The notes beneath the pieces are model-generated. The model was not told the origin of the DNA. It saw only the letters and a list, made by a program, of their open reading frames with translations, and did no database searches. The translations under genes were made by a program, and so were the position numbers. A stretch of 64,000 nucleotides of DNA from Amoebophrya sp. A120 (lineage: Eukaryota; Protista; Dinoflagellata), in NCBI GenBank assembly GCA_905178155.1, contig CAJINV010000002.1:5079709-5143708 (forward strand), in the 5' to 3' direction. Numbering within the stretch: the first letter of the stretch is position 1; every line of letters starts with the position of its first letter. Of this stretch, positions 1 to 44,300 are shown one piece after another.

Positions 1-3000
1 CTTTATTGCACATAGAAAAACAAGAACAACGATAAGCACATCTTTCGTTGGCAGCAAGCAGCCCATGGAGTTGCAACCGGCTATAAGTGGTCTTTGTGCT
101 GGGTCGATGTTCTGTCTGCCTTTTTTGCAACACCACAAATTGAATTCTTGTCATTGCTGGCTACTATTTTCTATTTGATACGACGGTTCTGGACGGCATG
201 GATTTAAAAGATGGGGAGTTTATTGCGAACACGGTAGAAGCGGCTTTACTAGACGACGACGCGCAAACCTTCGTCGTCGAATTTGACAATCAAGTCATCG
301 GGTAAGTACAAGCGTAAATTTGTTTTTACTTGGTGTCGCAATTATAGGAGTTTGAAACAAGTTGTGCCGGCGGCAATAGAGGTCGCCGTCGGAAGAATCG
401 CTGTCCGTATGTGGAACAAGGGGCTGCTAAAACAAATTTTGTGTGAGGACAAATAGTGAAAAGTATTCATCAACATCAGGACGAAACAAAGAACACAGTG
501 ACTTGTTTTCATCTGAGGTGGAAATGCAAATGAATCACAGATGTTGAATTCAATTTATCCGTCTGCAACTACAGCGTCGTCGGGAGCTCCTTGGTGAAAG
601 ACGACTATTTAGAGACGCTCCGCTGCGTGTACCAAGTAGACCGGGCGGTCAATTCGCCAGAGTACAATTCCTTTGCGTTTGTGGACTTTTTCCTCGTGAA
701 CCCCATCTTTGACATTTTCCGACGGAAGATCCTCCACCTCTGCCAGCTGATCGCCGGCAACACGGTCTTTTTGTACGAGGCGCCTATCCAGTGCAAATAT
801 CTGTGTCTGGGTCTGGAAGAAGTGCAGAAGCAAGAGGACAAAGCTTGCTCTAGTTCATGCAACACGTAATTTTCATCGTGTCAACCACCCTGAGCATCAC
901 AAGTTGCACTGTTCCAGGCCCAGACATCACATTGGCAATGCATAGCGCAGCTCACCACGCAAATCACAGACGACCCGATCGAGGACCATGCGGGCTCCGT
1001 GCACTCCGGCAGCCCACTATGAAAGTGCACAGCGCGCTCTTTTTTCTCATTTGTCATGCAAAATGTCTAAACTTCGTCTTCGACTTCCCATCCGGGCCGT
1101 TTGGCCGTGTTTGCATGACAAGTTCATCTGGCAGCCCAAACTGGACTACAGTCCCGGCTTAGATTTGTCATGCATGAGCTGTTTTTTGGAGGTTGTTTGT
1201 CTTGCAGTTGCTAGACTGCACCGTTCGAAAAATGAGACTGGAGGGGGACTAGTTGTGCACGGTCATATTCCCACACCGAGGGCAAAGGCAGTCCCTTCGA
1301 GGAGGGATCTCTATCCCGGCAGATGTCCAGCGCGGCGCCCTTATGTCAGTGTACAACCACTCCCCGGAGGACTCCTCTCACTTGTATAAAGAACATTCGG
1401 GGAAAAAATAAATGCCGAGTCCAGTCTGAGGTCCAGATAAGTAGGTGGACGGGCTTGCATGTCATGCGGAAGCTGCAGTTTGTATGTCGATAGAAAAATT
1501 GTCCTTCGAACGAAAGGGATTTAGGGGGGATTGATTGTCCATTCTCATATCCCTTTGCCCCGGAGTTGCCGACCGGCATGTCAAAAAAGGAGTTGATTGC
1601 GTTGAAGAAAAAGCAGGAGGTATCCAGGAAAAAAACTGTGTAAGTGTAACTGTGTAGGAAAAGCAGCATCACAAATTACCTTTGCATTACAGGGAAAGTC
1701 TGTCATGCGCAGCTAGTACGTGGAAACACGTATGAAAGTAGCGTATGACGCAGATCCAGCATGACAAGTATAACAGTTTTGCACCTTCCGCATCACAGAT
1801 TTACACTCACATACTTTTTTTCTTGCATAGGAGGCGGAAGCGGCCGAGGCGGCAAAGGCCGCGAAGAAGGAACTGGATTCCCTGGAGCGAAAGGGCTACA
1901 AGCAACTGGTCGACAAAGACGGCAACCTGCTCCCGCTGTCAACCATAGTCAAGGAAATGACGCCCATTCCACCCAGAAATTCTCCCAGCCTAATGGTCAC
2001 GCACCACGGCGGCCAGTCGCCGAGCTCCCCTTCGGCAAAGGCAAAGGTATGACATTTGATTTTTTTCAAACTCTATAAGGGCTTGGGTTGATTTATTGTC
2101 GGTGTGTTTCACTACTGTATTTATCGAACGATCATTGTAGACCAGGACTCTGCTGCTTGTGTCTGTGGTGGTGGTGCTCTCTGTGCATATTGATGCTGCA
2201 GCGACTGTCATGTGGGAGTGGGCGCTGCACCAGCAGCGCGATGCAATCTAAGTTTAGAGATCATTTGTGTTCGTCAACAACGAGAAATTCAAGGGTTTTC
2301 TACTGCGATTAAGATTTCAGTACTGTAAAAATAAATTCAGCCACACTCCTTCGCTTCTCTGCCGGTGGAGCCACAGCAGCAGCAGGTAGACGCGGAGAAG
2401 CGGGAAAAAATGCGAAAACTGGCGGAGAAGAACGGGCTGTCATTATTGGCCAGGCCGCGACTGTCCGCACCGAAACGGGACGTGAACGCGCGAATAGTAG
2501 TGGTCGGCGCGAGCCACACGGGTCTCAGTTTTTTGTTGTCGCTGCTGCTGCCAAATTACCAGCACCTGCAGTTCAACAGTTTAACGCTCGTCGCGCCGGA
2601 ATTGAAGTAAGATTTTTGTTGATGTGGGAGTCAGTTTGATGTGGCATGATGGGTTCGCTAGTTTTGTTCTTTGTCGCCTGAACTGTGTTTGTCTTCTTTT
2701 CCCGTTCAGAGGGAGCTCTTCACCTTCGCAAGTGAGCAGTGGACATCTTCTTGAACGTAAAAAGAAAATTCCAAAAACACAGCCCAATATCGGGAGTGTC
2801 GTTGAGTCCGAGCTTGCGGCCGCTGATATCCCGCAGAAAAAAGCGAGCATGCCACATCGATAGCTGTAAGATGCAAGGAGAAACACATTTTACAAAAATA
2901 TTTCTTTATGGTTTGGCCCATAGCGGGGGCGTGTCGGTGATGTAAGACACATCGTTTTTTTTTTGCGTGTGTGCTGTTGCATTTTTTGCCTTTGCTACTG

Positions 3001-6000
3001 CTAGCTTTTTTCTGCGCCATAGCGGAACGAAATTGATCCGGTGCTGCTCCGTAGACTCAAAGCGGACGTTCGGGTATATCCAACAGAAAAGTTGTACCCG
3101 CTCCCGCACACGAGAAAAAATTGCCTTGCGGATTTTGGTTTTACAAAAAGGCTCTTTGACAGTTCTGCATGGGAATAAACGCATCACAAACTGTATTTCG
3201 CAGGGCAGCGCATCAAGAGAGATTGTCTCCCTTGTCGTGCTCGTCTCCGCATTACAGAGCTTTCAGTGACACGACCGTAAGTAGCAACGCAAGAAGTGTA
3301 TGTTCTTTTCTGTGTGATAGGGTAAAAGTTTTGCGAGACCGCGTGCGGTACCAAATGTAAAAATGTCTGGGTCTGGAAGAATGCGCGATTTCTCATGTAG
3401 CTTTTCCATGACCCATGAAGCCTGGAATGCAGGACCTAGCATGACAGATTCTGTGCGATCTCTCTCATGCCTATCCTGCGTGAGAAACTCCCTCCCGACT
3501 TGGTTAAAACTGGATGACTTTGGGTAATCATGCAACACAGATTTTTGCATGCTTCGGATTTAGCATGACAAGCTGCATTCTTCCAGACCCAGACATTTTT
3601 ACATTTGATATGAGGGAAATTGACCGGGCGCAGAGAGCGCTGGTGCTGGAGGGCGACAAGGCGAGTTTGCTGCCCTACGACTTCCTCGTGCTCACACCTG
3701 GTCTGCAGGTACTTCGGTTTTTCAGTATTTTGTCAACCACGACATTTTCAACAAGGCGTGGACCGTTTTGCCATGCGAAGCTCGGAAACAATCAAGAAAC
3801 ACACAAAATTTGATAAACCCCATCCTCCAGGACTGCACACTGTCCGCAGATCAGATCCAGCTCCGATCCTTATCCGGGGGAAATTTGATGCCAGTGTCTG
3901 AGTTGATAGAAGGGGAAAAAAAATTGAACACACACTCGCGGTCATGCACTTTTACCCGAAATGTCTAATATAAATGGCTGCATGCGGCGCATCGAATTTT
4001 TGTTTTTCTAACAGTAAAACGAGTGAGTCTCGGTGGCTAGGCAAAGTAGGCGTGCAGTCATTGGTCTTTTATGAGCACGTGGGTGGACGACCAGCACCTG
4101 CAAGCAGGGTAGGAAGCATGACAGGTTGATGTAGTTGACCGCATTTTTTATCATTTTTTTCCTTTTTCTATACCGTGTAGACCCTGGTGGCAGCACTATT
4201 TCCTTCCATAGTCCTACGGGTTCAATAAGTCTGCCGTTTGGCAAATCGAAACGGCGGACATCAAGGCCAAGGCGCTCCAGAGGAAAAAGGAGGAGGCGCA
4301 GAAGGAGAAGGAAGCGGAGGAGCAGGCCAAGCTGGCCGAAAATAAGAAGCCCCGATCCGCGGCGGCGAGGCGGTCGAGTAACCAGTCCCAGGCCGAGGAG
4401 ATGCAGCTTGCAAACCAAAAGGCCGCGGAGGAGAAGGCCCGAGAGGAAGAGGCCATGCTAGACTATGCATTGCAAATATCGTCTCTGCTGGGCTTGGAAG
4501 ATTTTTCAGAATGTAATATTCATTCATGTGTTGCTTCCTTTGCCTTTCTGTACGTCCACGTGCATTGAGCCGCAAAACAAGTGCCGCATGTTTTGCCAGT
4601 AACACAGGTTTTCTTGCAACTCCTTTGCATGCGAGTCTGTGATGCTGATAAGTACTAGGCCATGCATTTTTCTAGACTTTGCGGGGCAACATGCTAGACT
4701 GCCTGTATGAAGAGAAACAGACCCTCCAGGAGGCATGCTTGCTTGCAGTGGATACAGAAGCGACCCGACCGATCTTCGACCCGGAGACCGAACCGGCGAC
4801 GCTGAACGGCGTGCTGAGTGTGGGGGATCCACGCTTAGGCGACTTTTTCGCAGAATCCGGCACGTTTGTTATCAAAAGGAAAAATCCCCCCTCCCCATAT
4901 CAAAACGAAATCTCTGATGCTGGATTTGAGTACACAAATCAGCTTTGTTTTGCAGGAAAGCATTGCAGTCAGATCCCCAGGCTAGGTAGGGGCGTATGCG
5001 TCTAGTTGGTCAGCATGGCAAGCGGCTCCCCTTTAGGCCCAACAGCATGACAAAGCGCTTCCGTAATGGGGCGGAAGCTTCTGCCCTTGTTTTCTTATTC
5101 TTGCAAAACAAATGCGATTTGTGACCTCAAATCAGCAACGCAAATTTTCGGAAGCATGCCGTTTCAATATGGGGAGGGGCGATTTTTCCTCTCAATATTT
5201 GTGAAAGCGCTGATCTGGAACCCGCTCACGCAGATTTGCGTGTACGGCAATTCTATCAACTGCAAAAATGTCTGGGTCTGGAAGATTAGAACTTGTCATG
5301 CTAAATCTAAATGATGCAAAAATCTGTGTTGCGTGAGTGCCAAAAGCTGTCCGCTTTTGACCAAGTTGAGAGGGAGTTTCTCATGCAGGAAAGGCATGAT
5401 AGAGACCTCAAAGAATCTGTCATGCTGGGTCTCGCATTCTAGACCTCGTGGGTCACGGAAAACCTGCATCACAAATCTGTTATGACAGACCTCGTGGGTC
5501 ACAAATTCTAGACCTCGTGGGTCACGGAAAACCTGTTATGACAAGTCGGATTTAACCTTTCTCAGGTTAAATCCGCATTACAAATTAAGCACTTAAGGCA
5601 AATAAGCACTTCGTAAGAAAAAAGCACCTCGTTTGTGTAACAGATTTCCCTTCGTAAGACATAAGCACTTCGTAAAACGTATCGCAATTGCCCTCGTAGA
5701 AATACCAAGCAGATACTACAACAGACTAGCAGCGTGCGGGGGGAGACCAATGTGGTCTCCCCCCACCCGCTGTGACTCTTAAAAAACACACCAGGGAACT
5801 TCTTTTTTTCCAGCAGAGGCTGGTCGTGGGTTGTGGGGATGAGAAATAGAAGCAATATGCTAGCACGATTTGAAGTCAGACGTAAGCTCTTTAAGATTTC
5901 CGCTTCGCTTTATTTCAGTTTTACAGCACAGACTAGCAACTAGATACAGACTAACAGGCACTAAGTTCAGAAGAAAACACTACGAAGAGCGAAGATCTGC

Positions 6001-8579
6001 CTGCTAGCGCGGACATACGACACGCACGCGGGGGAGGAGGGGGAAAACGCAAGCGAAGCGAGAACAAGACGCGCAGCACAATGTGCTGGAGCAGAGGACG
6101 AGAGCAGATAGTAAGAATATCAAAACAAGATGAAAAGCGCACGCATACACGCGCACTGCTTAACTGTGTGAAAGGTGTCGGCCCTGTTTGACCTGCTGCG
6201 GCAGGCAGGTGAATTCGTAGAACTGCTTCACATGTTAAGTAACGCACACCGGCCTCCTAGTTTTAGTGATGAGTTTATATGCGTCAACAGAGCGGGGCCC
6301 AATCAAAAAAAAAAAAAAAAAACCTGCATCACAAATCTTGCATTCTTCCAGACCCAGACATTTTTACTTTCGATAAATTCGCTGGAGGTGTACACGGTCA
6401 TCCAAGGCTTGCTGGTCAGAAAAGTTCCGGCTTCCAAAATACTACTGGTGCAACCGACACAGACGGAAGCCAGCTCTAGCAGCTCGTCGAGCAGTTCCTC
6501 CTCTCAACAGCAGCTCCCGCCACCGGAAATTCTCGAGAAAATTGAGCAACAGCTTGAGAAGAAAAAGATCCGGATTTGTAATATCCAGTGTAAATAAATT
6601 AACGTAAGTACCCACAGCCCCATAGTCACGATCTGCAAGACAAATCTGCAATCTGTAGGAGCTGCGGGTGGTAACGGGGCCCCCGCAGGATAGTCGTATG
6701 TAAAGAGCTTGGCCGCATCGGTAAGCCACTTGCAGCTTGTAGTCTTGCATAGAATTATTGTCGTGAGGCAAAGTGACGAAAGGCCAGGAGAGAATGTGTC
6801 TCATGTAACAAGTTGCTGCGCATAAGTTCCTTGGGGTCGTTGTGGACACTACGGTTTTTTAGCACGTGATATGAAAGAATCACACGCTCAAGCGACTAGA
6901 AAAGGACGGACGGGACCGATTGAGTTCGATCGTGTTCATATGCAAAGGAAAAAGTTTACAAGTAGAGTTGCGCACTGTAGAAGACAAACAAGAAGAAGTG
7001 TTGCAGGACAAACAAGACAGACAACCTCTACCATGCCCGGAGTGCTTGCGAGTCTCGTTGCATGCGTGCATTTCATTTTTACGGGCTTCGCATGGCAAAC
7101 GTTCTTTGTCGTGCAGAGCTGCAAGAAGTTTGTGTTGCTAAATTTGCATACAAGTGTGCAACTGTAAATACGCTTTTTGTCTAGGATAGGTCACCAACGA
7201 GGCGAACCACGAGGAGGTCGCGTTTAGTTGCCGAATACTGCTCACCGCGGACAAACTGGACGTGGATCCCGACATTTTCCATGCGCTACACAGCAACGGC
7301 TTGGTGTTTGACGGGGCACTGATAGTAGACCACGCTTTCCAGACCACCGATAGCAGGATATTCGCGGCAGGGCCACTGGCGGAGTTCTCCAGAAGTGCAC
7401 AGAGCAGTTACGTGCACGACCGCCAGCTACTAAGACACGATGGGTACTATCGTCATTTTTAATGAATTTTGTATAATGTGCTTCTTTCGTAAAACAAAGC
7501 GGTTTGAGATCCGATCTATTCACTGGACCCGATTTCGTCTTTATGAAACCGCCCCTCACGCTGACCGTTCCCATGCAACGTGCGCTGTATTTTTTTTTCA
7601 TTTTTGCGGCCTTTTTCGCTTTGAGTTTGAGCAGGCAACGATCATTTGCCAAGCTGCTGGCGTAGCTATTCCACACGTGAAAATAAGAAAACAAAGAACT
7701 ACGCAACAAATCGTATGAAAAATCCTCTGCAGCTACAACGGTATGGAGCTTGGGCAGCACTTGGCTGAGGCCATTTTGAGTAAAGCAGAGATTTACGACG
7801 CGGAGGAGGAAGCGGCAGCGGCCAGCAAGGACTTTACCTACCAAACGCTGCAGATGCCAATATACCGGGCGGGGCTGTTGCCGGGGAATCTGCGCTACTA
7901 CTGCGTCAGGTGTCCGAAGAACGTACTGCAGGCGAGGAAGGAGAAGCAAGTAAAGCACATGCTGACCGACACGTTGTCTCTGGACAGCGAAAGCGGGCAC
8001 TTCTGCAAGATCACGTACTGTCAATTATGAGACGATTAAAAAGCTGTTTCTGCTTCTGGATTCTTGCAGCGTTCCGTTCATAGTAGAAAGACTTTTTGGG
8101 ATTTCTGTTTTTACCTCAATTCTTGTCATACATGTGCCATTCATTCTGGAGGTGGACTGACATAAAAACAAATTATTTCTCTGAATAAAACTCCAAGGTG
8201 CACGGGCAGCACCGTGACGGAATTTCTCTACCTGGGGTACCAGGAGCTCCATCGCCACGCACTGTTCCACCTGGTGGGGCGAAATATTTCCTTTTTGAAC
8301 GGCCTGGAGCAAAGATACGCGAGCGCTGATGGGGCAAACAGTTTCGACCTCGTGGAGTTTCTCACCGACTCATGGACGCACGCGTTTTACCATGACGACT
8401 TCTACGAGGTTTTTGTCACGCAGGCAAAGAAGGAAAATTGGGACGAGAAAAAAATGAAGGACAAGCTGCTCGACTACCTTACCAAGTGCGCGGACTTGCA
8501 GAAGATTTCCTCCTACTACATACCCGGGAAAACGGACGTCGGCATGAGCCTCGGCACCGTCGGGACGCTTGATAACTGA
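1..8579 (+). CDS. CFAP61: Cilia- and flagella-associated protein 61, multi-exon, 5' end lies before the window
   Basis: Exon peptides RIVVVGASHTGLSFL...FNSLTLVAP, EIDRAQRALVL...LPYDFLVLTPGLQ, ICVYGNSLEVYTVIQGLL...KILLVQP, VDPDIFHALHSNGLVFDGALIVDHAFQTTDSRIFAAGPLAEFSR, DLVEFLTDSWTHAFYHDDF match the degenerate FAD/NAD-binding C-terminal half of CFAP61 as I recall it; stop at 8577-8579. Not all exon borders resolved. Confidence 0.85.
785..944. mobile_element. Introner, short family-A-like
   Basis: tatcc...gtctgggtctggaa / ttccaggcccagac...gcata; DR gcgcc/gcgca; removal gives LYEAQLTTQITDD. Confidence 0.8.
1018..1267. mobile_element. Introner, family E (tat..agtgcaca / tgtgcac..cata)
   Basis: TIR tatgaaagtgcaca / tgtgcacggtcata; decayed DR cccac/ttccc; removal of element +5 nt gives GSPHTEGKGSPFEEGSLSRQM. 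Confidence 0.7.
1621..1829. mobile_element. Introner, family D; also readable as GT-AG intron 1620-1833
   Basis: TIR tatccaggaaaaaaa / tttttttcttgcata; perfect DR ggagg; splice gives KKKQEEAEAAEAAK-like acidic/Ala-rich frame. Confidence 0.85.
3349..3610. mobile_element. Introner, family A (262 bp), reverse orientation relative to 52418-52679
   Basis: TIR taccaaatgtaaaaatgtctgggtctggaagaa / ttcttccagacccagacatttttacatttgata; DR tgcgg/tgagg; splice gives RDRVR-EIDRAQ. Confidence 0.92.
4870..5197. mobile_element. Introner, family B (328 bp)
   Basis: TIR tatcaaaaggaaaaatcccccctccccatat / atatggggaggggcgatttttcctctcaata; perfect DR tttgt; splice gives ESGTFVKALIWNP. Confidence 0.92.
5254..6375. 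mobile_element. Introner, family A, enlarged by a nested retroposon
   Basis: Family A TIRs, perfect DR aattc; splice gives VYGNSLEVYT; 1122 bp minus the 860-bp insert = 262 bp, the family A length. Confidence 0.92.
5479..6338 (+). mobile_element. Poly(A)-tailed non-autonomous retroposon, copy 1
   Basis: 20-bp TSD aaaacctgcatcacaaatct (5459-5478, 6319-6338), A18 run at 6305-6322, 3' ~160 nt shared with 42829-42991. Confidence 0.85.
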
Positions 8580-13391: not shown

Positions 13392-16300
13392 ATGTCGGTC
13401 GTTTCTCCGACGTTCCTCAGGTCCTCGTCGAGCTCCGCGGTCCGCATGCTGGTCGGGACCCGGTGCAGCATTTCGTCTCGTCGACCCGGCACAAATAAGA
13501 ACTACAGTGCGACGACGAAATTTTTCTTCCCCTCGAAGAACAGCCCGCCCCGAAGCTCCTGCAGCCACAACGACCGACGTTTATTTTCCAGCGCTCTGAA
13601 CCCGATGCCGGCAAGTGGCGAAGGACCACACGACAGCAAGCACGAAACTAGTAGTACTTCCGGGCGGTTGCAAACCGCTTCTGTATCGCTGTCCTCGCCG
13701 CTGCACCTGCCGCTTTCGGCCGTGGACTCAGAAGTACACGCAATCATCGAGATATGCAAGAGAAAACTGTGTAAAAACTGCAACTTCGTGTTGCGTACGC
13801 ATGTAAAATTAGAAAATACAGTTATCACTACTTTATGTCATTCTGCTGGAAGATCCAGATGCAGCCTAGGCTAGCCTCATACGTACCCGTGCTTTGACGG
13901 ACTACCCGCGCATGACCTCATGCCAGACAGATTTGCTATGCTGTGTCCACCACCTCAAAAGTAAAACGAAAAAGAGTTGTTGTACTACCACAGTTTTTTT
14001 CTTGGATGCGAGAAGGAGAAGCAACGGCAGAAATTTTCTATCAACCTGATTGCCAGCGAAAACTACACCAGTCAGGCGGTGTTGGACGCCTTGGGCTCGG
14101 TCATGCAGAACAAGTACTCCGAGGGGTATCCCGCAGCGCGGTACTACGGTGGAAACGAATTTATCGACGAGGCGGAACTGCTGTGCCAGAAACGCGCCCT
14201 GGAAGCGTTTGACCTCGATCCGGCCGAGTGGGGCGTGAATGTGCAGGTTTTTTCCGGGTCGCCCGCGAACTTTGCGGTTTTCTTATTACAATGAAAAATG
14301 CCTCCACCCCCGAACTTGGGAGCATTTGTATTGCAAACCTTTCCAAGTGAAACACTCCCCCTCTTGCATCTATCAGCATCACAGGTTTTCAATCGTTAAT
14401 AGCAAAAATTTGTATTGCAAAAGACCCCAACAAGAGCGGTCATGCAAGCGATGCGATACACGCCTACATTCTACATCAGAAAGATTCATACTCCGTTCAT
14501 GCATGACAAAATCTTTTCATTTGGAAACTTCGCATCACAAATTTTTGCAATTTAGGGGTGGGGGGCACTTTTCACTGTAATACTTCTCCGCACTGGTCGA
14601 GCCACATGGCCGCATCATGGGGTTGGACCTACCGCTATCCTGTGTAAAAACGTCCCCACCTCCTCTCCGGTAGACTTGTCATGCAATAGATACAACTCGA
14701 TGCGTCACGTAAAATCGTTCTTGTGCGCAGCTCCATCGGAAGCATTTTCAATTTATCGGTGTTTTGGAATTTTTCATGCTACAACCAAGGAGGTTGATCA
14801 ATTTGTAATGCAGCTGCACTTTCTAAGTAAACACTGTCAGGCGCAACTACACGCAAAGCTTGCCGGTTTGTGTAGCAAAGTGCCCATCTTGACTCTGCGG
14901 CGGGGACGTTTTTGCTTAGCATAACCGCACGGAGGCCACTTAAGCCACGGGTTCCAGACGCCACAGAAAAAGATCTCGTTTGTGTCCAAGTTTTGGGAAA
15001 CCATGCCGTACCGACTGGACGAAAAGACCGGCCTAATCGACTACGATCAACTGGAGTTGTTCGCAAAAAGGTAAATTTGTTTTAGAAGCGAGTCGAGTGT
15101 TATTACTTCTAGCATTTCAAAATATTCGCATGACGAGAAAAAGAGAAGCAGATGACAATCAAAGGGGACCATGCTAGTACTACCCTTCTTGAGAACTGCA
15201 TCCTTTCTCAACAATTTGTGCACATTATCAAGAAAGGCAAACGTTGCAACCACTATAGGTTTCGTCCGAAGCTCATCATCGCGGGTTGTACGGCATACTC
15301 GCGAATCGTGGATGTGCCGCGCTTTATCGTGCGGAAAACTTCTACGTGTTTCACTGTGACGCTTTCGGAAATGACAAGCTTGGTGTTGCGCTTGCATGAC
15401 AACGAAAATTCATCACGTGGGGTACTGGATTTATTTTAGGGGACGAAAGTAGTACTGCTAATGCTAAATGTAAAGATGCTCCTTCGTGTATTTCCAGCTA
15501 AGCAAGCACTTCCTTCCTGCAATCTTTGCAACAGTCAGAGAAACCGTTTTTCCCCGCGATAATCTTTCGGCAAATTTGCGACGAGACGGATTCCATCCTG
15601 CACTATGACATGGCGCACATTTCCGGCCTGGTCGCGGCCGGGGTCGTGCCGAGCCCGTTCAAGCAGGGCGCGGACGTGGTGACCAGCACGACACACAAAT
15701 CCCTACGTGGGCCCAGGGGCAGCTTGATTTTCTACCGGAAGGGCTTGAAGAAATCCGCCGCGCCGGCGAAGGGAAAGAAGGGCGGGGCGCCGAAGGAGGA
15801 AGTGTACGACTTGGAGAAGAAAATCAACGAGGCCGTGTTCCCGGGCTTGCAAGGCGGACCCCACAACCACTCGATCACGGCGCTGGCTGTGGCGCTAAAG
15901 TTATCGTAAGGAAAAATCCCCCCTCCCCATATCGAGAACGTATCCGTCTGAAAATTTGTGATGCGCATTTGTGACCTCAAATCCTGTCTGTCTTGCAAGA
16001 AGGCATGTCCAGAAAGCGTTCCGCATTTTGCAGGCGGTTTGTGATGCTGTTGGGCTAAGAGCATACGCGTTCGTCATGCTAGGCGCCTACGTCAAAACCT
16101 CTCGACTGAGGCTTGGCATATGCCTGCAGTCCTCTACTGCGCGACGCATCTGATTTGTGTATGGAAATCCAGCATCAGAGTCTTCGTTTCGATATGGGGA
16201 GGGGGGATCTTTCCTTTTGATAAAAGTTGGCGAAAACCCCGGAATTCCGGGACTACCAGCAGCAAATCTTGAAGAATTGCGCAGGTACAAGCGTGGATAA

Positions 16301-25229: not shown

Positions 25230-28200
25230 ATTGGCACACGGTGCGCGCTTCGGATTTTTGTTTTGGAGGGGCGCGGGCGTCCTCTCGTATTCTGCCTGCG
25301 CTTGGCGCCGGGAAAATGGCATTGCGCCTACCGCGCGCGCTTCCCTAGGCGCCGTCGCTGACAGTGGTGATGGTATGCGCGTGCCCATTCTGTATTGCTC
25401 TGTGGCCGGGAGAAAAATTTGGAGCGCCGCGCGCACGCAGACACCCTGGCCCGAGCAGGGGGCGGATGCTTCCTTATTTCCTTTTGCTATCAGGGGCCGG
25501 CCGAAAAAAAATTTTCGCGCGCGCCGCGCCCACTCAGGCGCGCGCCATGACCGGGCAGGCGTAGAGGCCCTTCCCTATGCGTGCCCGGTAGCCGCGCGCT
25601 TGCCGAGAATTTTTTTTCGTGCACAGCGCATGCGCAAGCGCTTTGGCCTGAGGGCGTGGAAGGTATTCTTTCGTGTCCGGAAACCCGGGGCGGGCCGGAA
25701 AAATATTCTGCGAGCGCGCGCTGCGTGTGCGCAGACGCCTTGGCGGGGGGGCGCGGAGCGAATGTTTTTTGCGCGTCCAGCAGCGAGGGCGGCGCGCCGG
25801 AAAAAAAAAAGTTGCGCGCGCGCGCATGCGCATGCGCCCCGACCTGAAGGCGCGGAAGCCTTTGGTCGTTCCCAGCTATCGAGGGCCGCCCGATCGAAAA
25901 AAGTCTTTCGCCCGTTGCGCGCCCGCAGACGCCTTTGCCTGTCTGAGGGCGGTTGGGTTTTTTTCGCGTCCTCCAGGCGGGGCCTCGGCGGCAAATATTT
26001 GTCGTGCGCTCGCTGCGCGCGCGCAGGCGCCTCGGCCTCGGGGCGCGGAAGGTTTTCGGTGCGTTCGGCAGTCGGGGGCCGTCCGGGAAAAAGTTTGCGC
26101 GTGTTGCGCGCACGCAGACCGCCCTGGCCTTGGGTGAGCGTGGGAGGTGCCTCTCCATGGCCGGCTAAAAGGCGTTGACCGGAAAAAACCTCGCGTGGGT
26201 GCGCCGCGCGCATCCTCACCATGTACGGCGTCAGGGTGTGGGCTGTTTTATTTTTTTCGCGCCCCGCGATCGGGGGCCGGCCGGTAAAAAATTTTCCGCG
26301 CGCACAGCGCGCGCACGCCTTGGCCCGAGGGTGTAGAAGATCTTTTGCTCGCCCGGTGGTCGGGGGCTTGTCGAGAAAAATTTTTCGCGAGCCGCGCGCG
26401 CACAGTAGTTTTCTTTTGGCCCACAGGCGAGGAAAGTCTTTTCCGCAACCGGGCGCCAGTTGAAAACAAATTTTCGCGCGCGCGCGCCTGCGCGCGCGTC
26501 TTCCTTGGCCTGAGGGCGTGCGTAGACGCTCTTTTTCACGCCCGGCGGGGGTCGGGGGCCTGTCGAGAAAAAATTATCGCGCGTTGCGCGCGCGCGGGCA
26601 CATTAGTTTTCTTTTGGCCCGTAGGCGATGAAATTTTTTCTCGCAACCGGGGGCCAGCTGAAAAAAAATTTTCGCGCGCGCGCGCGGAGCGCGCGCGTCT
26701 TCCTTGGCCTGAGGGCGTGCCTGGGCGCTCTTCTTCACGCCCGGCGGCCGGGGGCCTGTCGAGAAAATATTTTCGCGCGTTGCGCGCGCGCGGGCACATT
26801 AGTTTTCTTTTGGCCCGTAGACGAGGAATTTTTTTTCCGCAACCGGGGGCAAGCTGAAAAAAGACTTTAGCGCGCGCGCGCGCCTTCCTTGGCCCGCGGG
26901 CGTGCGTGGAAGGTTTTCTTCTCACCCGGAGGTCGGGGGCTTGTCGAGAAAAAATTTTCGCGCGCTGCGCGCGCGCGGACGCATTAGTTTTCTTTTGGCC
27001 CGTAGGCGAAGAAATTTTTTTCCGCAACCGGGGGCCAGCTGAAAAAAAACTTTAGCGCGCGCGCGCTGCGCGCGCGCGCCTTCCTTGGCCCGAGGGCGTG
27101 CCTGCGTGGAAGGTTTTCTTCTCACCCGGAGGTCGGGGGCTTGTCGAGAAAAAATTCCCGCGCGCTGCGCGCGCGCGGACGCGTTAGTTTTCTTTTGGCC
27201 CGTAGGCGAGGAAATTTTTTTCCGCAAGAAATTTTGTTTCCGCAACCGGGGACCAGCTGAGAAAAAATTTTCGCGCGCGCGCACAGCGCTCGCGCGCCTT
27301 CCTTGGCCTGAGGGCGTGCTTGGAAGGTTTTCCTCTCACCCGGAGGTCGGGGGCTTGTCGAGAAAATATTTTCGCGCGCTGCGCGCGCGCGGGCGCATTA
27401 GTTTTCTTCCGGCCCGTAGGCGAGGAAATTTTTTTCCGTAAGAAATTTTTTTCCGCAACCGGGGGCCGGCTGAAAAAAAACTTTAGCGCGCTGCGTGCGC
27501 GCGCGCGCCTTTCTTTGCGTGGGTGAGTCAGTGGCTTGAGACTTTTTTTCACGCCCGGCGGCCGGGGGCTTGCTGGAAAAAAAATATCGCGCGCTGTGCG
27601 CGCACACATGTTGGCCAGGGGGCGCGGCGAGGTGTTGCTTGCACCCGGCAACCGGGGCTGCCGGAAGAAATAGAGCAAATTTTCGCCACCGCCCCCTGCC
27701 CGCCCGCAGGCGCCGGCCTTGGTCTGCGGGCGGGCGCGGAGGTTTTTTTCGCGCCGCCCCCTCGGGGTCTTGCCGGGAAAATATTCGCGGCGCGCAGGCG
27801 CCTTGTTCTGGCGCGCTTTTGCTTGCGTCCGGCGTCCGGGCAGTCCCGGAAACGACTTTCGCGCGCCGCGCGCGCGCAGCCGCCTTAGCTTGAGATGGGC
27901 GCAGAAAGTTTTTCTTCAATATGAGGAAAGCTGTTCGCCTGCTAGCAAGGTGATGACGATGGTGATGAATCGCGCGCGGCTACCGGGTGTTGGCCGGAAA
28001 AAAACTTACCGCGCGCTGCGTGCGCATAGTGGCCGTGGCGTTAGAGGGTGGGCGGGGCCGCTTCTTTCGTGTCCACGATTGGGGGTTTGCCGGAAAAAAA
28101 ATTCCGCGCGCTCCGCGCGCGCAAGCCTTTGTGCGGAGCCTTTCTCTCCGCCCGGCATTCGGGGGCGGGCTGGCGAAAATTTTTCGCGCGCGCGCGCGCA

Positions 28201-28640
28201 CATGTTGGCCCGGGGGCGCGGTTGGGGACTTTTTGCGGACCCGCCCCCCTTCCGGGGCCGGCCCGGCTGAAAGAAAGAATAAAGTAAATTGTTCGCGCGC
28301 TGCGCGCACGCAACCTCCTTGGCCTCCGGGCCCGGGGCGTTTTTTTCGCGCCTAGCAGCCTGCGGCCGGCCTGGAAAAACTTTTTGTGCGTAACTTCCTT
28401 GGCCTGCGGGCCCGGCCGGAGTGTTTTTTCCGCGTCCAGCCTTTCCTTGGAGGCCCGCAGGGGAAAAAAAATTTTGCGCGCTGCGCGCACGCAGGCACAT
28501 TGCCCCGGGGGCGCGGGGCGTTTTTTTCGCGTCCGGCCGTTGCTGGCTTGCCGGTCGGAAAAAAAGATCGCGCACTGCGCGCACGCAGGCAGACTGGCCC
28601 GGGGGCGCGCACGCAGGCAGACTGACCCTTATGCCTTACC
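25230..28640. repeat. Degenerate GC-rich satellite of (CG)n tracts alternating with A/T tracts; homogeneous core 26300-27520
   Basis: tagttttctt(t/c)(t/c)ggccc recurs near 26407, 26604, 26800, 26985, 27185 and 27399 (spacing ~185-215 bp). Confidence 0.9.
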
Positions 28641-28726
28641 TGCAAAGAGCAAGGGCCTCGCCGTCCTTTTTTCGCATCTTTTCACTGTAGGTGAGCGCCC
28701 AGCTCCTCGGGGGGCCTAAGCGTCCG

Positions 28727-29120
28727 GCTTCTCGTAGCCGGAGAAGCTGGACTTCCAGCTTCTCGTAGCCGGAGAAGCTGGCCTTCCAGCTTCTCGTAGA
28801 GCCGCCCGGGGAAGCTGGACTGTCAGCTTCTCGTAGAGCCGGGGAAGATGGACTTTCAGCTTCTCGTAGAGCCGGGGAAGCTGGACTTTCAGCTTGTCGT
28901 AGAGCCGGGGAAGCTGGGCTTTCAGCTTCTTGTAGAGCCGGGGAAGCTGGACTTCCAGCGTCTCGTAGAGCCGGGGAAGCTGGGCGCCCAGCTTCTCGTA
29001 GAGCCGGGGCAGCTGGACTTCCAGCTTCTCGTAGAGCCGGGGAAGCTGGACTTCCAGCTTCTCGTAGAGCCGGGGAGGCTGAGCTGCCGGCTTCTCGCAA
29101 CCAGGGAAGCTGGACTGTTA
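28727..29120. repeat. 33-bp minisatellite, about 12 copies
   Basis: Unit cttctcgtagagccggggaagctggacttccag in tandem. Confidence 0.93.
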
Positions 29121-29159
29121 GCTGCTCGGAGCAGGAGTGCTGGCGTTCTGGCTGCCAGA

Positions 29160-29646
29160 ATCTAGAAGCTAGATTTCTAGATTTCTAGAACCTAGAAATC
29201 TAGATTTCCAGACTTCTAGATTTCTAGATTTCTAGAAATCTAGTTTCTAGATTCTTGGCCGCCAAAGTCTAGAAACAAATCTAGAGGCTACGGAACCCAG
29301 AACCGCTATCCCAATAGACGTTCTGGGGTCAGAAGCTCTATTGCAATAGACGTTCTGACTCCAGAACCTCTATTGTGATAGAGGTTCTGGGTCCAGATGA
29401 AGGTACGAGATAGAGCTTCTCAAGCTAGAAAATGTCAAGAAACAGTGAAAAGATTAGAAAAAAAACAAAAAAATCAAAGAGCAACGAAATCAGTAAGAAA
29501 AATAAAGAAAAGAAGAAAAAAGAAAGACTGTAGAAAATCTAGAAAAAGCTTAGAAATCTAGAAAACCTAGAACATCTACGGAGAAGTTAGAAAATGGCCG
29601 AGAACCTCTATCAATAGAGGTTCTTTGAGAAGTTCTTGAATATTTT
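29160..29646. repeat. TTTCTAGA microrepeats and agaacctctat/atagaggttct palindromes
   Basis: Repeated tttctaga/tctagaaa at 29160-29290 and 29530-29580; inverted pairs near 29363-29388 and 29601-29624. Confidence 0.8.
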
Positions 29647-35446: not shown

Positions 35447-36233
35447 GTGGATGACTTCGAAGAGGCACGCGCCGAAGCGGCGCTCTCCCTCTACCTCAGT
35501 AGTGTGCCTGCCTGGGATTGCGTGGTCGTACCAAAGACGCGTACCTGCACCCTCCGCTATTTGAACATGAATTCTGTAGCCGAACACACTATTCCGAAGG
35601 AGCACAGCTGCTGTGAATTCCATCCGGCACCCACGGGAGGGACGCGCGGGTCTTGTTCGCTCCGTCCGGCGTGCAGGAAGAATGACTATCGTTGTGCCAG
35701 ACAGGTCGCGATTTGGCACTTCGACGGGTTGGGTCGCAAGTGGTGGAAATCTGGGATGGCCGAGCTGCTGCGAGAAAATCGAAAGCAAAAAGAAGACAAA
35801 CTGCTCGCAGTGGACCATAAGCACCATATGGAAGCGTCAGCAGGGCCGAAATCGACAAAGTTCAGAAAATTTGTACTGCATAAAATCGATACCAGGTGGG
35901 CCCACAGTTTCTAGTCGGCGCATGACAAATTTTCTTTGCCTCTCAAGCAAGTCTATCATGCTGCTTAGGGCCAAAGGGCTCCCCTCCGTCATGCTAATCA
36001 GCAGCCCAATTCTCGACCCTTGCCAGCACTACAATCTGCCTCCCTTGCGTCCTCTGCAGTAGACGCAGTTTTTGCGTTGCATCTTATGCATGACAAACTT
36101 TTTTGACTTTGGCGATTTCGATCCTGACACTCCCATACGTCCTGACGAGTGCAACAAGTTCCGGCCTACTGCTACGAGTGAGACGGGCAGGCGCGCTATC
36201 GATATCAGGCAGAAAAATCTAGCATGCAAATGA
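35447..36233 (+). CDS. Hypothetical Cys-containing protein, last two exons; 5' end unresolved
   Basis: ORF 35447 joins ...DECNKFRPTATSETGRRAIDIRQKNLACK* after removing the introner 35827-36137 plus 5 nt. Confidence 0.5.
35827..36137. mobile_element. Introner with long (~55 bp) imperfect TIRs
   Basis: tatggaagcgtcag...cgaaatcgacaaagt...tttgtactgcataa versus ttatgcatgacaaa...actttggcgatttcg...ctgacactcccata; decayed DR cacca/cgtcc. Confidence 0.8.
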
Positions 36234-36620
36234 TGCGCATTTCGCGCATTTGTGTAGGTAAAAATGAAAACTAAAGTTCAGAAACATTACAACCATCCAG
36301 CCGCAAGCTGTTCAGCGCCCGCCAGGTCTTAACCGACGCTAGACAGATACTTCGACTTCTGTGTTCGGTTTTTTGAATGCCAATCAAAAGAAGTAATGTC
36401 GTGCTAGGTTTTTTCCATGTGATGGAGGACCGCGTCGAGCCGAAATCTTTGTCGAGCCGGGGTGAAGACAGTCGTGCACCGACCGTTTTGGACGAGCCTG
36501 GTAAGTGGATCCATTTTTTTTCCCGGCCTCCCGCAATGCAGACGAAGCTAAGTAGCCTTCCGCTTGGTTGCATTCGTATAGATGGCGATGGATAAAAGTG
36601 GTTTACTAAGTTTAACTTAA

Positions 36621-37977
36621 TCTATATACTATAGGGGCAAGATATGTATTTGTTCCTCCCAAAGCTTCTGAAGGTTTGACCTTCTGAAGACCTTCTGACG
36701 CTCAAAACTTGATTTTTGAGCTTCAGAAGGTCAAAAAAAATAGTCGTCTACTTTTCATGTTAAAAAACGCGGAATTAGCTCTCGTAAATCAAATTCTGGC
36801 TCATTTTTTACATCCTTCAGAAGGTCCAACCTTCTGAAGGTTTTTTTTCACCTTCTGAAGAATTTTCTCGATTTTTCGACAAAAAAACCTTCAGAAGGCC
36901 AAAAAATGACTTTAGAAAAGCCTCAGAAGGTAGGCATTCTTCTGAAGGTTTGCTTCGTTTCATGAAATTGCAAACCTTCAGAAGGTTGCGAGTTTTTACA
37001 CGCAAAAAATGAACAAAAGTCGAAACACCTACAAAAACCTTCAGAAGACGAAAAATCTTCTGAAGGTTTTTCACAAATTGTCTCGTTTTTAAAAAAATGC
37101 AAAAATCTAAACTCGCACACCTTCAGAAGAATTTGACTTCTCATTCTTCTGAAGGTGGACCTTCTGAAGACTCTCCAGAAGATATTGCACAAATTGGCTT
37201 TTTTGATGTGCGCGAAACTGTTTACTCGACTAAAAAAGGCCTCTTTTGTGACAGCCATTGTTCAAAAAATGAAACAAACCTTCAGAAGCTCTTCAGAAGC
37301 TTCGTCGCTGTTTGCATTTTGAATGCGCAGTTGCTTTTTTTCCAGCGCAGACGACAAAAATGCAAAACACTTAAGCCAGCTTTTTTTTCATGGCTCGGAA
37401 CCTCCCGATAGAATAGCTCGGCGGAAAATTTTCAATGCTCTTATTGGGGGAAGATTTTCGCTTTCGGGCCTTCGGCCGCGTCCGACCGACGCAGCTACTC
37501 GACGAGGAACCGCTACGCCGCATCAGTCTGGCGATGGAAAGGCAACAAGTTGGAAAAAAAAAGCGAAAGAAGTAAGATGCTCTCGATGAGATCTCAGTGA
37601 GATTTCAGCGAGTCTCGCTTTAGAAAAAGTGAGATCTCAGCGAGATCTTACTTCCTAAGAAGTCTCACGGTCCGAATCACTTCTCCGAGACGGCCAAAAA
37701 GTGAGACTTTGAAAAAAGTAAGATCTCGCTGAGATCTCACTTTCTGAGACATCGCACTTTTGGGCCGCCAAGCGAGATTTTGAACAAAGTGAGAGCTCCC
37801 TGAGATTTTCTGAGAAGTCTCACCTTTGGGCCGCCCGAAAGTGAAATTTTTAAAAAAGTTGTGAGATCTCACTCCTTTTCCGGTGTGGCAGTGAACAAGT
37901 TCTTTTTTCTTTCATAACCCACGGGAAGAACAAATACAATGCTTGCCCCGCGACGCAGTCGCGGGGAGTGGTTCTTA
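36621..37977 (+). mobile_element. Non-autonomous Helitron/Helentron-like element
   Basis: 5' TCTATATACTATA after an A; 27-bp subterminal inverted repeat 36634-36660 / 37923-37949; 3' hairpin ccccgcgac-gca-gtcgcgggg 37946-37966; interior arrays of CTTC(T/A)GAAG and GAGATCTC. Confidence 0.65.
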
Positions 37978-37983
37978 TTTACT

Positions 37984-38580
37984 CATGTAAAATGTGACGA
38001 TGTTGCTGCGTTTGTGTTTGTGCAAAGTGGTTATCTACTTGATGAAACAGTTTCAGATAGAAGAAATAGCACGATCTACTAGTTTTTCGTACGTACTATG
38101 TAAGGTGACCACGCTGAGGACATTCCCGCGGGACCTTCCACGCAAAATGCGCTGCGCCATGCCACTCATCAAAAGAAGGTGCTTGACAGCGACAACGAGG
38201 GCCGTGGTGAAGACAGTCGTGCTTTGGACGAGCCTGGTAAGTGGATCCATTTTTTTTCCCGCATCGCAGACGAAGCTAAGCTGTTGCTTTTTGTTTGGCA
38301 TTCGTGTACTAGGTGGCGAAGGATAAAAGTGGTTTGCTATAGTTTAATCATGTAAAATGTGGCGATGTTGCTGCCGCTGCGTTTGTGTTTGTGCAAAGTC
38401 GTTATGTATCTGACGAAACAGTTTCTGATAGAGTCAACATGTAAAAGAAATAGCACGATCTACTACTATTTCGTACGTATGTAAGGTGAAGACGCTGAAG
38501 ACATGTCCGAGGGACCTTCCGTGCGAAATCCACATGCCTCTCATCAAAAGAAGCTGTTGGACAGCGATAACAAGGGGCTA
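37984..38580. repeat. Diverged ~365-bp tandem duplication, with a further partial copy at ~36380-36616
   Basis: catgtaaaatgtg.cgatgttgctgc at 37984 and 38349; ttggacgagcctggtaagtggatccatttttt near 36487 and 38224. Confidence 0.8.
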
Positions 38581-41301: not shown

Positions 41302-44300
41302 ATGTCGCAATCTCTGTTGCAGCAAGAGCAAGGCATCAAGACCGCCGAGGGGGGTGGTGTACCTCAGAAGACGGAACACCACCACCACCGCCGCAGTCAC
41401 GACGGAGCGCACGTTCCGAACCACTTCAAACACCACGGCAAGCACAAGCACCACCACCACAAGCACAAGCACCACGGGCAGCAGGACGATTCCGCCTTTC
41501 TGCAGCGCGACAACAAGGCGACACCTGCGGCGGCGCCGGACCAGGCGGGCGGCGCCGCAACCGCGCCCATGAGCGGGTCGGTGCCAGGACCTGCGGACGC
41601 GGGGGCCGCTGGAGGAGCGGCGGCTGCGAACAACCCCGGTGCTGGTGCGGCTTACGGGCAGCAGCCGCCGCCGGAACTACAGCAGCCCGCTGCGAATGCT
41701 GCTGATGCGCCGCTGCCTCCCGCGGGGCCGGGCTCCTTTTACAACCCCCCGCCCGCCATGCAAGACGGCGCGCCGCTGCAGCAGCCCCCTCCGGGCCCGG
41801 GTACGCCGATGCCGGGCGAGCAGTTCCCGGCGAACAATTGGGGGCAGCAGTATAACCAACCCGGGGGGCAACCGCTGCCCTACAACCCGCAGTACAATCC
41901 GCAGTACAATCCGCAGCTGAATTACCAGGACTACGCGCTGCAGCAGCAGCTTCTCCAGCAGCAGCTCCTTCAGCAGCAGTACCAGCAGCAGAACAACTTT
42001 CAGCAGCAGAACAACAACAATAACTACCCGCCGCAGATGCCCCCGCCGGAGTTTGCCGCTGCAGCGGCCCAGCAGAATGCGGGCAACAACTACCCGCCGC
42101 AGCAGCTCCCGCCGAATTACCTGCCGCCGGAGTACGCGAACGCAGCTGCGCAGAATGCTGGCAACACCTACCCGCCACAGCAGCTGCTGCCCTCGATATC
42201 CTGAGTAAAAACGTACCCACACCAGAGTCAGAATGGGGATTTTGCAACACAAACCTAGGAGTTTTGTGAGTCACGCATGACAAGTTGCACTCTGCAGTGT
42301 AGTGCAGGTTAGCAAGTGCAGCCGCGTCACAGATTCATCTGCTCATCCTGTTCACAGCATCACAAATTCCAAAACACGATTGGAAATGGCTCTCATGTTG
42401 ATGCGCATTACAAGTCTTCCTGTCTTTGCAAATCTGCATTACAACTGCTCGGCTGTCCCCCACTTCTTAGATTGTCGTCAAAGATTAGAGTAGTGCTATT
42501 CCATTACCGCCTTCGCGATATTTTTTTAGCGGACCCCGCACATTATCCCTGATGCGTTTCCCGCTTAGTATTGAATGTCTTTGACTCAAACACATAAACG
42601 CGCCTTGCTACGGCACACCTCATCTGCCTAGTCGCCCCTAGGTAGGTGCAGGAATTTTCTGTGTGGGCTTTTTGTGCTGAATTATTCCAACAGGGGCTGC
42701 GTTTTTTTTTTCTGCCTTGCCAGCAGAGTTGTACAGATGGGGGGGAATTGACGGAAATGGAGCGAGACCTTGGTGACGGACCAGACGACAAGAGCGGAAA
42801 TGGTACAAATCAAAAAAAAAAGATGGTGTACACGCGCACTGCTTAACTGTGTGAAAGGTGTCGGCCCTGATTGACCTGCTGCGGCAGGCAGGTGAATTCG
42901 TAGAACTGCGTCACATGTTAAGTAACGCCCACTGGCCTCCTAGAAGAATAGTGATGAATTTATATGCGTTTTTTCAGCGTGGGGCCCAATGAAAAAAAAA
43001 AAAAATCTGCATTACAACTCTGGTGTGGGTACGTTTTTACTCAGGATACTCGAGCACGAATTTTCAGCCGCCGCCTCCGAACTTCGAACAGCAGCCGCCG
43101 CTTGCAGCTCCTGCTCTATCACATGTAAAAATGTCTGGGTCTGGAAGATTGGAACTTGTGATGCTGCGTCTGCATTATCCAAAAATCTGTATTGCATGAA
43201 CAGCAAAAGAGGCCTGGCTTTGGCCACGGCGAGAGGGCATTTCTCATGCGGTATAGGCATCAGAATGCCCTCACAATATCTGTGATGCTAGGGCATGCAT
43301 CGCAGACGTCAGGAGTCACGCAAAATGTGCATGACAAACCTTGCATCCTTCCAGACCCAGACATTTTTACATTTGATATGCTCCGGTCGGGAACAACAAT
43401 GTGGCTGGCGGGCTCCAAGAGCAGCAGCCGCAGCAGCCGGGCTTTGCTCCCGCGGCCGCGGCTCCCGGGACGGAACAACCCGCACAACCGCAGGAGCAGC
43501 AACAGCAGCCCACGGCTGGTTCATCTACTTTTGCGAACAACGACCGGCAGCCGCCCGCGGCGAACAATGTTGAGCAGCCTCCGGCCGGCGCAGCGCCAGT
43601 GGCGACGCCCAATCACGGCGCACCGCTCGTGCCGGAAGACCCGACCACGACACCGCCCCCGCGGGAGCAACATCCGGATGAACACAAGCGCAGCACCGAC
43701 CGTCCCTACAAGTCGGCGGCGCCGCGGCCGGGGAACATTTTCATGACGGGGAACGACAAGGACCAGCTGCACAAACCCGTGGACTTGAAGAAGCACGACC
43801 ACCTGTTTCTGAAGCCCGAGAATTTCGCCAACGCCGACGCGTTTTTCAGCACCGGGGACCCGGACCAGCTGGCCGTGACCGCGTCGCACAGTGACGTATC
43901 AAATGTAAAAATGTCTGGGTCTGGAAACTTGTGATGCTAAAATGTGCATGATGAAAACACTTCCGAATGCAGTCCGGCATGACAACTTCCAAAAACGCTT
44001 TCTCATAGGCAATCCGCATGAGAAACTGCGTTTTTGCATGACAAAAGAGGCTGCGACTTTTGTTGGTTTTGCAATACAGATTTTCTAGGTATGGAAAGCC
44101 AGCATTACAAGTTCCAACCCTCCAGACCCAGACATTTTTACAATCCATATGACGCGTTTCTCTACTACGTCCTGCCCCTGGTGCTCTTCATCAGCTTGGT
44201 CTGCATCGCGAACATGGCCATGGAAATGTTCACCGTGAATGACGCGCTCGCGCTGTACAACCGAAAAAACCAGAAGGACTCGAAGCAAACGCGAAAACCC

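Follow-up and report, generated by a model that had tools for sequence, protein, structure and literature searches.

A poly(A)-tailed retroposon inserted at a shared motif inside Amoebophrya introners

Two poly(A)-tailed inserts and their introner hosts

In the window analyzed here, a 64-kb stretch of the Amoebophrya sp. A120 genome, all Pfam-supported ORFs lie on the + strand (34 of the 121 ORFs were scanned). Their domains are SHMT, TFIIIC Tau95, RMI1, pseudouridine synthase and WD40, and a CFAP61 dimerisation domain at 8166-8576 scored just below the Pfam cut-off. In a search for elements that have TAT/TAC...ATA/GTA ends and lie between 5-bp direct repeats, our script identified 22 in the window and 12 more in four other loci (L001-L004) described below; called introners make up about 11% of the window. 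A 5-bp direct repeat that both starts and ends with G gives the introner GT...AG ends (window 1621-1829; L001 1172-1377), so one element type can give rise to both canonical and non-canonical introns. Two introners of family A lie in opposite orientation, 59 bp apart, at 52098-52679. Between genes, the intervals 25486-28609 and 28723-29397 hold a GC-rich, degenerate tandem array that has a period of about 185-214 and contains CG runs and A/T tracts, and after it come 33-bp, 8-bp and 32-bp arrays. At 36456-38576, the window has the recurring palindromic units CTTCTGAAG and GAGATCTC with a duplicated block of about 300 bp.

Two of the introners, neither assigned to a strand, are interrupted by an insert. 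The first host (5254-6375) belongs to family A, has TAT...ATA ends and is flanked by the direct repeat AATTC. As originally predicted, removing its insert plus one target-site duplication (TSD) returns it to 262 bp, the length of 6 of the 12 called family A elements. The second host (42197-43048) belongs to family C, is flanked by CTCGA and measures 279 bp without its insert, the other family C copies being 288-304 bp long. When either host is deleted together with one of its 5-bp direct repeats, a + frame is open again; removing the host also restores the frame in L003 and L004 and, on the opposite strand, in L002. The hosts thus show the terminal inverted repeats (TIRs), short direct repeats and frame restoration of introners. 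The two families had been considered unrelated, a view that we do not share since TAT at the start, ATA at the end, 5-bp direct repeats and the internal motif are common to both.

Insert 1, with all its features on the + strand, is bracketed by a 20-bp TSD (5459-5478 and 6319-6338; exact and maximal), whose left copy contains the motif at 5466-5474 and whose right copy contains it at 6326-6334, ending 41 bp from the introner end. The left TSD is followed by a rearranged 5' junction (5479-5545) composed of a 31-bp copy of host positions 5436-5466 and a 16-bp copy of host positions 5441-5456. A 30-bp part of this junction matches its own host without mismatches and differs from other family A copies by at least 3. 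The adjacent 5' part (5546-5695) is absent from the five other copies of the element, and consists of a hairpin (5547-5575), a target-like site (5569-5586) and then short AGCACTTCG repeats. This stretch was possibly carried over from the donor site, and the second target-like site could be transported donor flank, which would fit read-through. The segment 5546-5640, with its 12-bp hairpin, target-like site and AGCACTTCG repeats, is also absent from the rest of the window and likely belongs to another repeat family. Summed contig depth was high over 5504-5637 in runs X1 and X2. A scan with the 5547-5575 hairpin returned one viral locus (L005), which we rejected as a chance match without blastn similarity. 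The remainder of insert 1 comprises a non-coding body (5696-6145), a conserved 3' module (6146-6304) and a tail of 18 A (6305-6322), the last four of which are common to the TSD. A G6/C6 hairpin lies in the body at 5730-5772 and is kept in L003 and L004.

Insert 2, also read on the + strand, has a 17-bp TSD (42430-42446 and 43003-43019), again exact and maximal, with the motif at 42436-42444 and 43009-43017, the latter ending 31 bp from the introner end. The empty site is present in contigs: family C copies without an insert carry the target once, with loose ends at 42446 and 43003. The non-coding body (42447-42828) represents another subfamily and aligns to insert 1 only over about 50 bp beside the module. 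The module itself (42829-42991) is the counterpart of 6146-6304, and a tail of 14 A (42992-43005) ends the insert. Both inserts therefore end, as first proposed, in a shared module of about 160 nt plus poly(A), with 89.7% identity over 174 columns, and their TSDs of 20 and 17 bp are at the expected positions. No other poly(A) tract in the window exceeds 11.

Four further copies and the geometry of the target

The motif GCAT(C/G/T)ACAA (GCATBACAA) occurs as 54 exact copies in the window against 1.98 expected. With a motif this common, the two cases alone prove little and a null model is needed. We scanned metagenome contigs once with an exact 21-mer from the module, ignoring the flanks, a search that misses diverged copies. 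The scan returned four loci, L001-L004, all from one assembly (JACKZZ accessions) and located in genes other than those of the window. All four copies end in poly(A), three bases and the motif, which in each case is the last motif copy inside the introner end. L001 and L003 are hosted by family A, and L002 and L004 by family B, so that six of six copies, in three host families (A, B and C), are on target. In L002, a family A copy adjoining the host is 362 bp long, about 100 bp above the usual length.

The strict motif of the original prediction fits three of the four new copies; L004 carries GCAACGCAA, a form also found in family B at window position 5135. The motif was loosened to GCA(T/A)N(A/G)CAA only after L004 was known, and we give the probabilities for both versions. 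For the null we used 35 emptied introners, in which an A-run end is on target in 1.3-3.0% of cases. On this null, four of four insertions on target under the loosened motif have P <= 8e-7 (about 1e-6), and at least three of four under the strict motif have P <= 5e-5. These are upper bounds, since the occupied hosts were counted in the null. The enrichment thus goes beyond a generic preference for A-rich DNA, and the proposal of a poly(A) retroposon inserting at an introner motif is supported by four independent copies.

The TSDs of L002, L003 and L004 measure 18, 19 and 18 bp; the L001 contig begins 1,087 bp upstream and includes neither a TSD nor the left host end. In all, five of the six copies have a TSD of 17-20 bp (17, 18, 18, 19 and 20), and all six have a tail of 12-18 A. 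Non-LTR retroposons are characterized by variable-length TSDs, a 3' poly(A) and a constant 3' end combined with 5' truncation to various extents. All of these are found here, together with a fixed target inside a DNA transposon in six of six copies. The six copies are independent on-target insertions.

Every site follows the pattern A-run, three bases, GCA(T/A)N(A/G)CAA, with the three-base offset kept in all six. In the five complete copies, the TSD starts in the A-run, 5-7 nt before the motif, and ends 2-4 nt past it. The distance from the motif to the element end varies (31, 41, 41, 44, 54 and 60 bp). An offset fixed to the motif combined with a variable distance to the end suggests sequence reading and not a ruler from the TIR. 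Family A has a terminal motif at both ends, and all three family A insertions are at the end with the A-run. Among the emptied introners, 15 of 16 sites with A-run plus motif are the terminal copy; where the A-run is missing, 24 motif copies are terminal and 43 internal. Sites of the target type are found on either strand of the window.

Since the duplication includes the entire motif, the host end, the motif-to-end spacing and both TIRs are kept after insertion, and an intron with an insert would stay spliceable. The motif is present multiple times in nearly every introner family (for example at 894-1173, 14501-14811 and 35920-36096), with an outward-pointing copy typically found some 40 bp in from each introner end. 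We consider it a candidate binding site of a splicing or mobilising factor.

Upstream of the module, the six copies have three mutually unalignable bodies: that of insert 1 and L002-L004, that of insert 2, and that of L001. Insert 1 shares its body with L002 (96.7%) and, at about 80% over the 5' half, with L003 and L004, and the start points differ among these four. L003 starts with a 16-bp copy that matches only its own host, and L002 with a short duplication of element sequence. Within the tail of the L002 module, at about 4540-4937 on the - strand, lies a stretch of some 400 bp that is unmatched elsewhere in the data and ends in a short GAATCT repeat; it may be a second retroposon or reflect a template switch. 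In the first 114 nt of the module, the six copies differ by only 0-6 bases. Its predicted fold is weak (z of -1.2 and -1.5), with compensated changes in 0 of 49 pairs. The module was absent from the viral contigs and prokaryote genomes scanned. In runs X1 and X2, its summed contig depth exceeded that of the flanks about 50-fold, and a single core contig did so about 16-fold; these values are not a copy number, and the depth hints at tens of copies.

The original prediction had anticipated an ORF for reverse transcriptase (RT) plus endonuclease upstream of the module. This was not found: stop-to-stop frames reach no more than 90-121 aa in the six inserts, no RT or endonuclease Pfam match appeared among the 34 of 121 window ORFs or the 13 locus ORFs scanned, and no conserved small ORF was seen by eye in the inserts. 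Rfam gave no credible match (both insert regions searched to E 10, the whole window at gathering thresholds) and neither did ARAGORN, so a SINE head of the tRNA, 5S, 7SL or snRNA type is absent by these programs. A consensus for the Pol III B box gave no match in the inserts, although the copies may be 5'-truncated, and a spliced-leader motif likewise revealed no relic. Unlike R2-type co-transcribed elements, which lie in the sense of the host transcript, the copies have no 5' self-cleaving ribozyme by Rfam and include one antisense insertion (see below). The window contains no rRNA and the targets are introners, so the 28S rRNA target of R1 and R2 does not apply. The copies could be the ends of 5'-truncated LINEs, or else SINE-like dependants.

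Inserts 1 and 2 are in gene-sense orientation, as had been noted, and codon scores and frame joins place L003 and L004 likewise; L001 is gene-sense by its downstream GT-AG introns. Gene-sense orientation is nevertheless not supported as a general rule, as L002 is antisense to its host gene: joins are open on the opposite strand only, and a neighbouring 292-codon frame scores 49 bits there. Five sense copies to one antisense is not significant (P = 0.11). The antisense L002 and this value together do not support obligate co-transcription with the host gene. In the raw RNA run X21, reads fell only on a family A copy from another locus, and none on insert 1 or its flanking exons. Contigs of X4, X6 and X7, which we guess to be RNA from one sample, contain an identical body of insert 2 as well as variants of it, and leave the flanking exons uncovered. 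This shows that the sequence is present and does not bear on the origin of any transcript.

A model for insertion and its alternatives

The anatomy of the copies, the TSDs of 17-20 bp that bracket the motif, the variable 5' ends and the junction copies of recipient DNA are direct observations. We think that they probably reflect target-primed reverse transcription (TPRT) by a non-LTR element whose endonuclease reads the sequence, where the enzyme, its specificity and the source of the RNA are inferred from the insertions. In our model, the RT protein would bind the conserved 3' module of the RNA, and the bottom strand would be nicked 3-7 nt before GCA(T/A)N(A/G)CAA, within the A/T-run. The freed T-run would then pair with the poly(A) and prime cDNA synthesis, and the top strand would be cut 2-4 nt downstream of the motif. 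Finally, the 5' end would be joined via microhomologies, at times after copying nearby target DNA.

The specificity might instead reside in a protein of the host or a transposase which, bound to the motif, brings a generic T-run nickase to the introner ends, where it nicks the nearest A/T-run. Nearly every called introner has several copies of the motif, an arrangement expected of protein-binding sites; each of the six insertions used a terminal motif copy; and the A-run that takes the first nick is an ordinary one. Moreover, with 15 of 16 A-run-plus-motif sites being terminal, sequence and position are confounded here, which leaves room for such tethering. However, tethering is usually less tight than an exact three-base spacing in six of six copies with second cuts 2-4 nt past the motif, and the DNA between the two nicks would be covered by the bound protein. 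We regard this explanation as unlikely, if worth keeping in mind. We give somewhat less weight still to the capture of polyadenylated RNA, copied without a cognate retro-endonuclease into staggered breaks at the motif that arise from the introner machinery or from repair. Templated junction insertions with microhomology also suit end-joining repair, and no autonomous partner was found, but random mRNAs would not explain why all six copies have the same 3' module and why the window has no long poly(A) tracts other than those of the two inserts. Furthermore, clean long TSDs with poly(A) on one fixed side are the pattern of TPRT, and the cuts of a transposase should fall at the TIR ends and not 31-60 bp inside them.

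Two further explanations fare worse. If the element had only an A-rich preference, exonic insertions would be purged and those in introns would survive, introners being about 11% of the window; yet P is <= 1e-4 even with the null confined to introners, so survival in introns alone is rejected, and we hold this very improbable. It is even harder to believe that a single composite was amplified through introner transposition. The hosts are themselves mobile and three of the six belong to family A, but the copies are spread over three host families, the five TSDs all differ, as do the 5' ends, and the bodies are of three kinds that do not align with each other. Such differences in hosts, TSDs and 5' ends indicate independent events, and we reject amplification of one composite for the six copies.

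Building on the TPRT model, we tentatively propose, as a conjecture that may well prove wrong, that the lineage reads the one cis-motif common to all introner families of this genome, the binding site of a putative factor that splices or mobilises non-canonical introns, that it regenerates the motif so that the intron stays functional, and that it draws its transcripts from the host pre-mRNA. If true, this would be a parasite of parasitic introns whose target marks a functional element of non-canonical splicing.

Relation to known elements and implications

The use of DNA transposons as a safe harbour by retroelements is already known. In Xenopus laevis, Tx1L inserts in the DNA transposon Tx1D (PMC1950540, PMC4494074). 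It resembles our case in its fixed non-LTR site inside a DNA transposon that serves as a harmless target, but it is autonomous, has a tested APE endonuclease and uses one target family, whereas the copies here have no ORF and occupy three host families. In crocodilians, Tx1-Mar and SINEU-3 target Mariner-N4_AMi, which flanks 313 of 347 SINEU-3 copies, and the target of Tx1-9_AMi comprises three Harbingers of about 90% identity (PMC4494074). SINEU-3 with Tx1-Mar is also a case of a non-autonomous retroposon with independent insertions in a TIR transposon that is itself abundant and non-autonomous; the TSD measures about 16 bp, and transcription from the flank was proposed there too. The differences are that its target is one old Mariner family, compared with a degenerate 9-bp motif across divergent intron-forming families in coding genes, and that our element has neither an snRNA head nor an identified partner LINE. 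We suggest that the element works like Tx1 elements, by analogy and without claiming membership of the Tx1 clade. The Drosophila R1 element is site-specific as well (PMC2718515); its TSDs are 14 bp long (up to 17), and it shows microhomologies and upstream target duplications between TSD and element. The junction copies of the recipient's upstream DNA in insert 1 and L003 resemble these rearrangements. R1 differs in targeting the 28S rRNA gene and in encoding RT and endonuclease.

For Amoebophrya, PMC7789003 describes introners with inverted repeats that start with TAT and an A-stretch and with 5-bp direct repeats, a description that our hosts fit, and reports non-LTR elements in these genomes; the passages considered mention neither an internal motif nor a nested retroposon in the introners. 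At least four A120 introner families are labelled non-LTR among the first 10 of 14 such rows of PMC12130899, and one of the families in this part of the survey, fam99 (5 copies, 784 bp, 11-bp TSD), could overlap our element, going by its description. The accessible parts of PMC6719617 and PMC12005148 hold nothing specific to an introner-targeting retroposon. No introner-targeting retroelement is reported in the open-access texts and supplements covered, and a 16-mer of the module appears in no paper from 2021 on in a literature text search. Thus, the safe-harbour idea is not new, but the introner target and the degenerate motif common to divergent families appear undescribed, and the lineage also appears new.

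These results place transposon-targeting retroelements, known from the Tx1 elements of vertebrates, in a likely basal dinoflagellate as well, and the target moves from the sequence of one family to a short motif common to many intron-forming families. In a compact, gene-dense genome, the introner motif may be the best safe harbour, and GCA(T/A)N(A/G)CAA is a candidate cis-element for introner splicing or mobility. A partner LINE, if found, would provide an endonuclease of new, short specificity. Finally, such composites may account for some of the introner families that were labelled non-LTR in the published survey.
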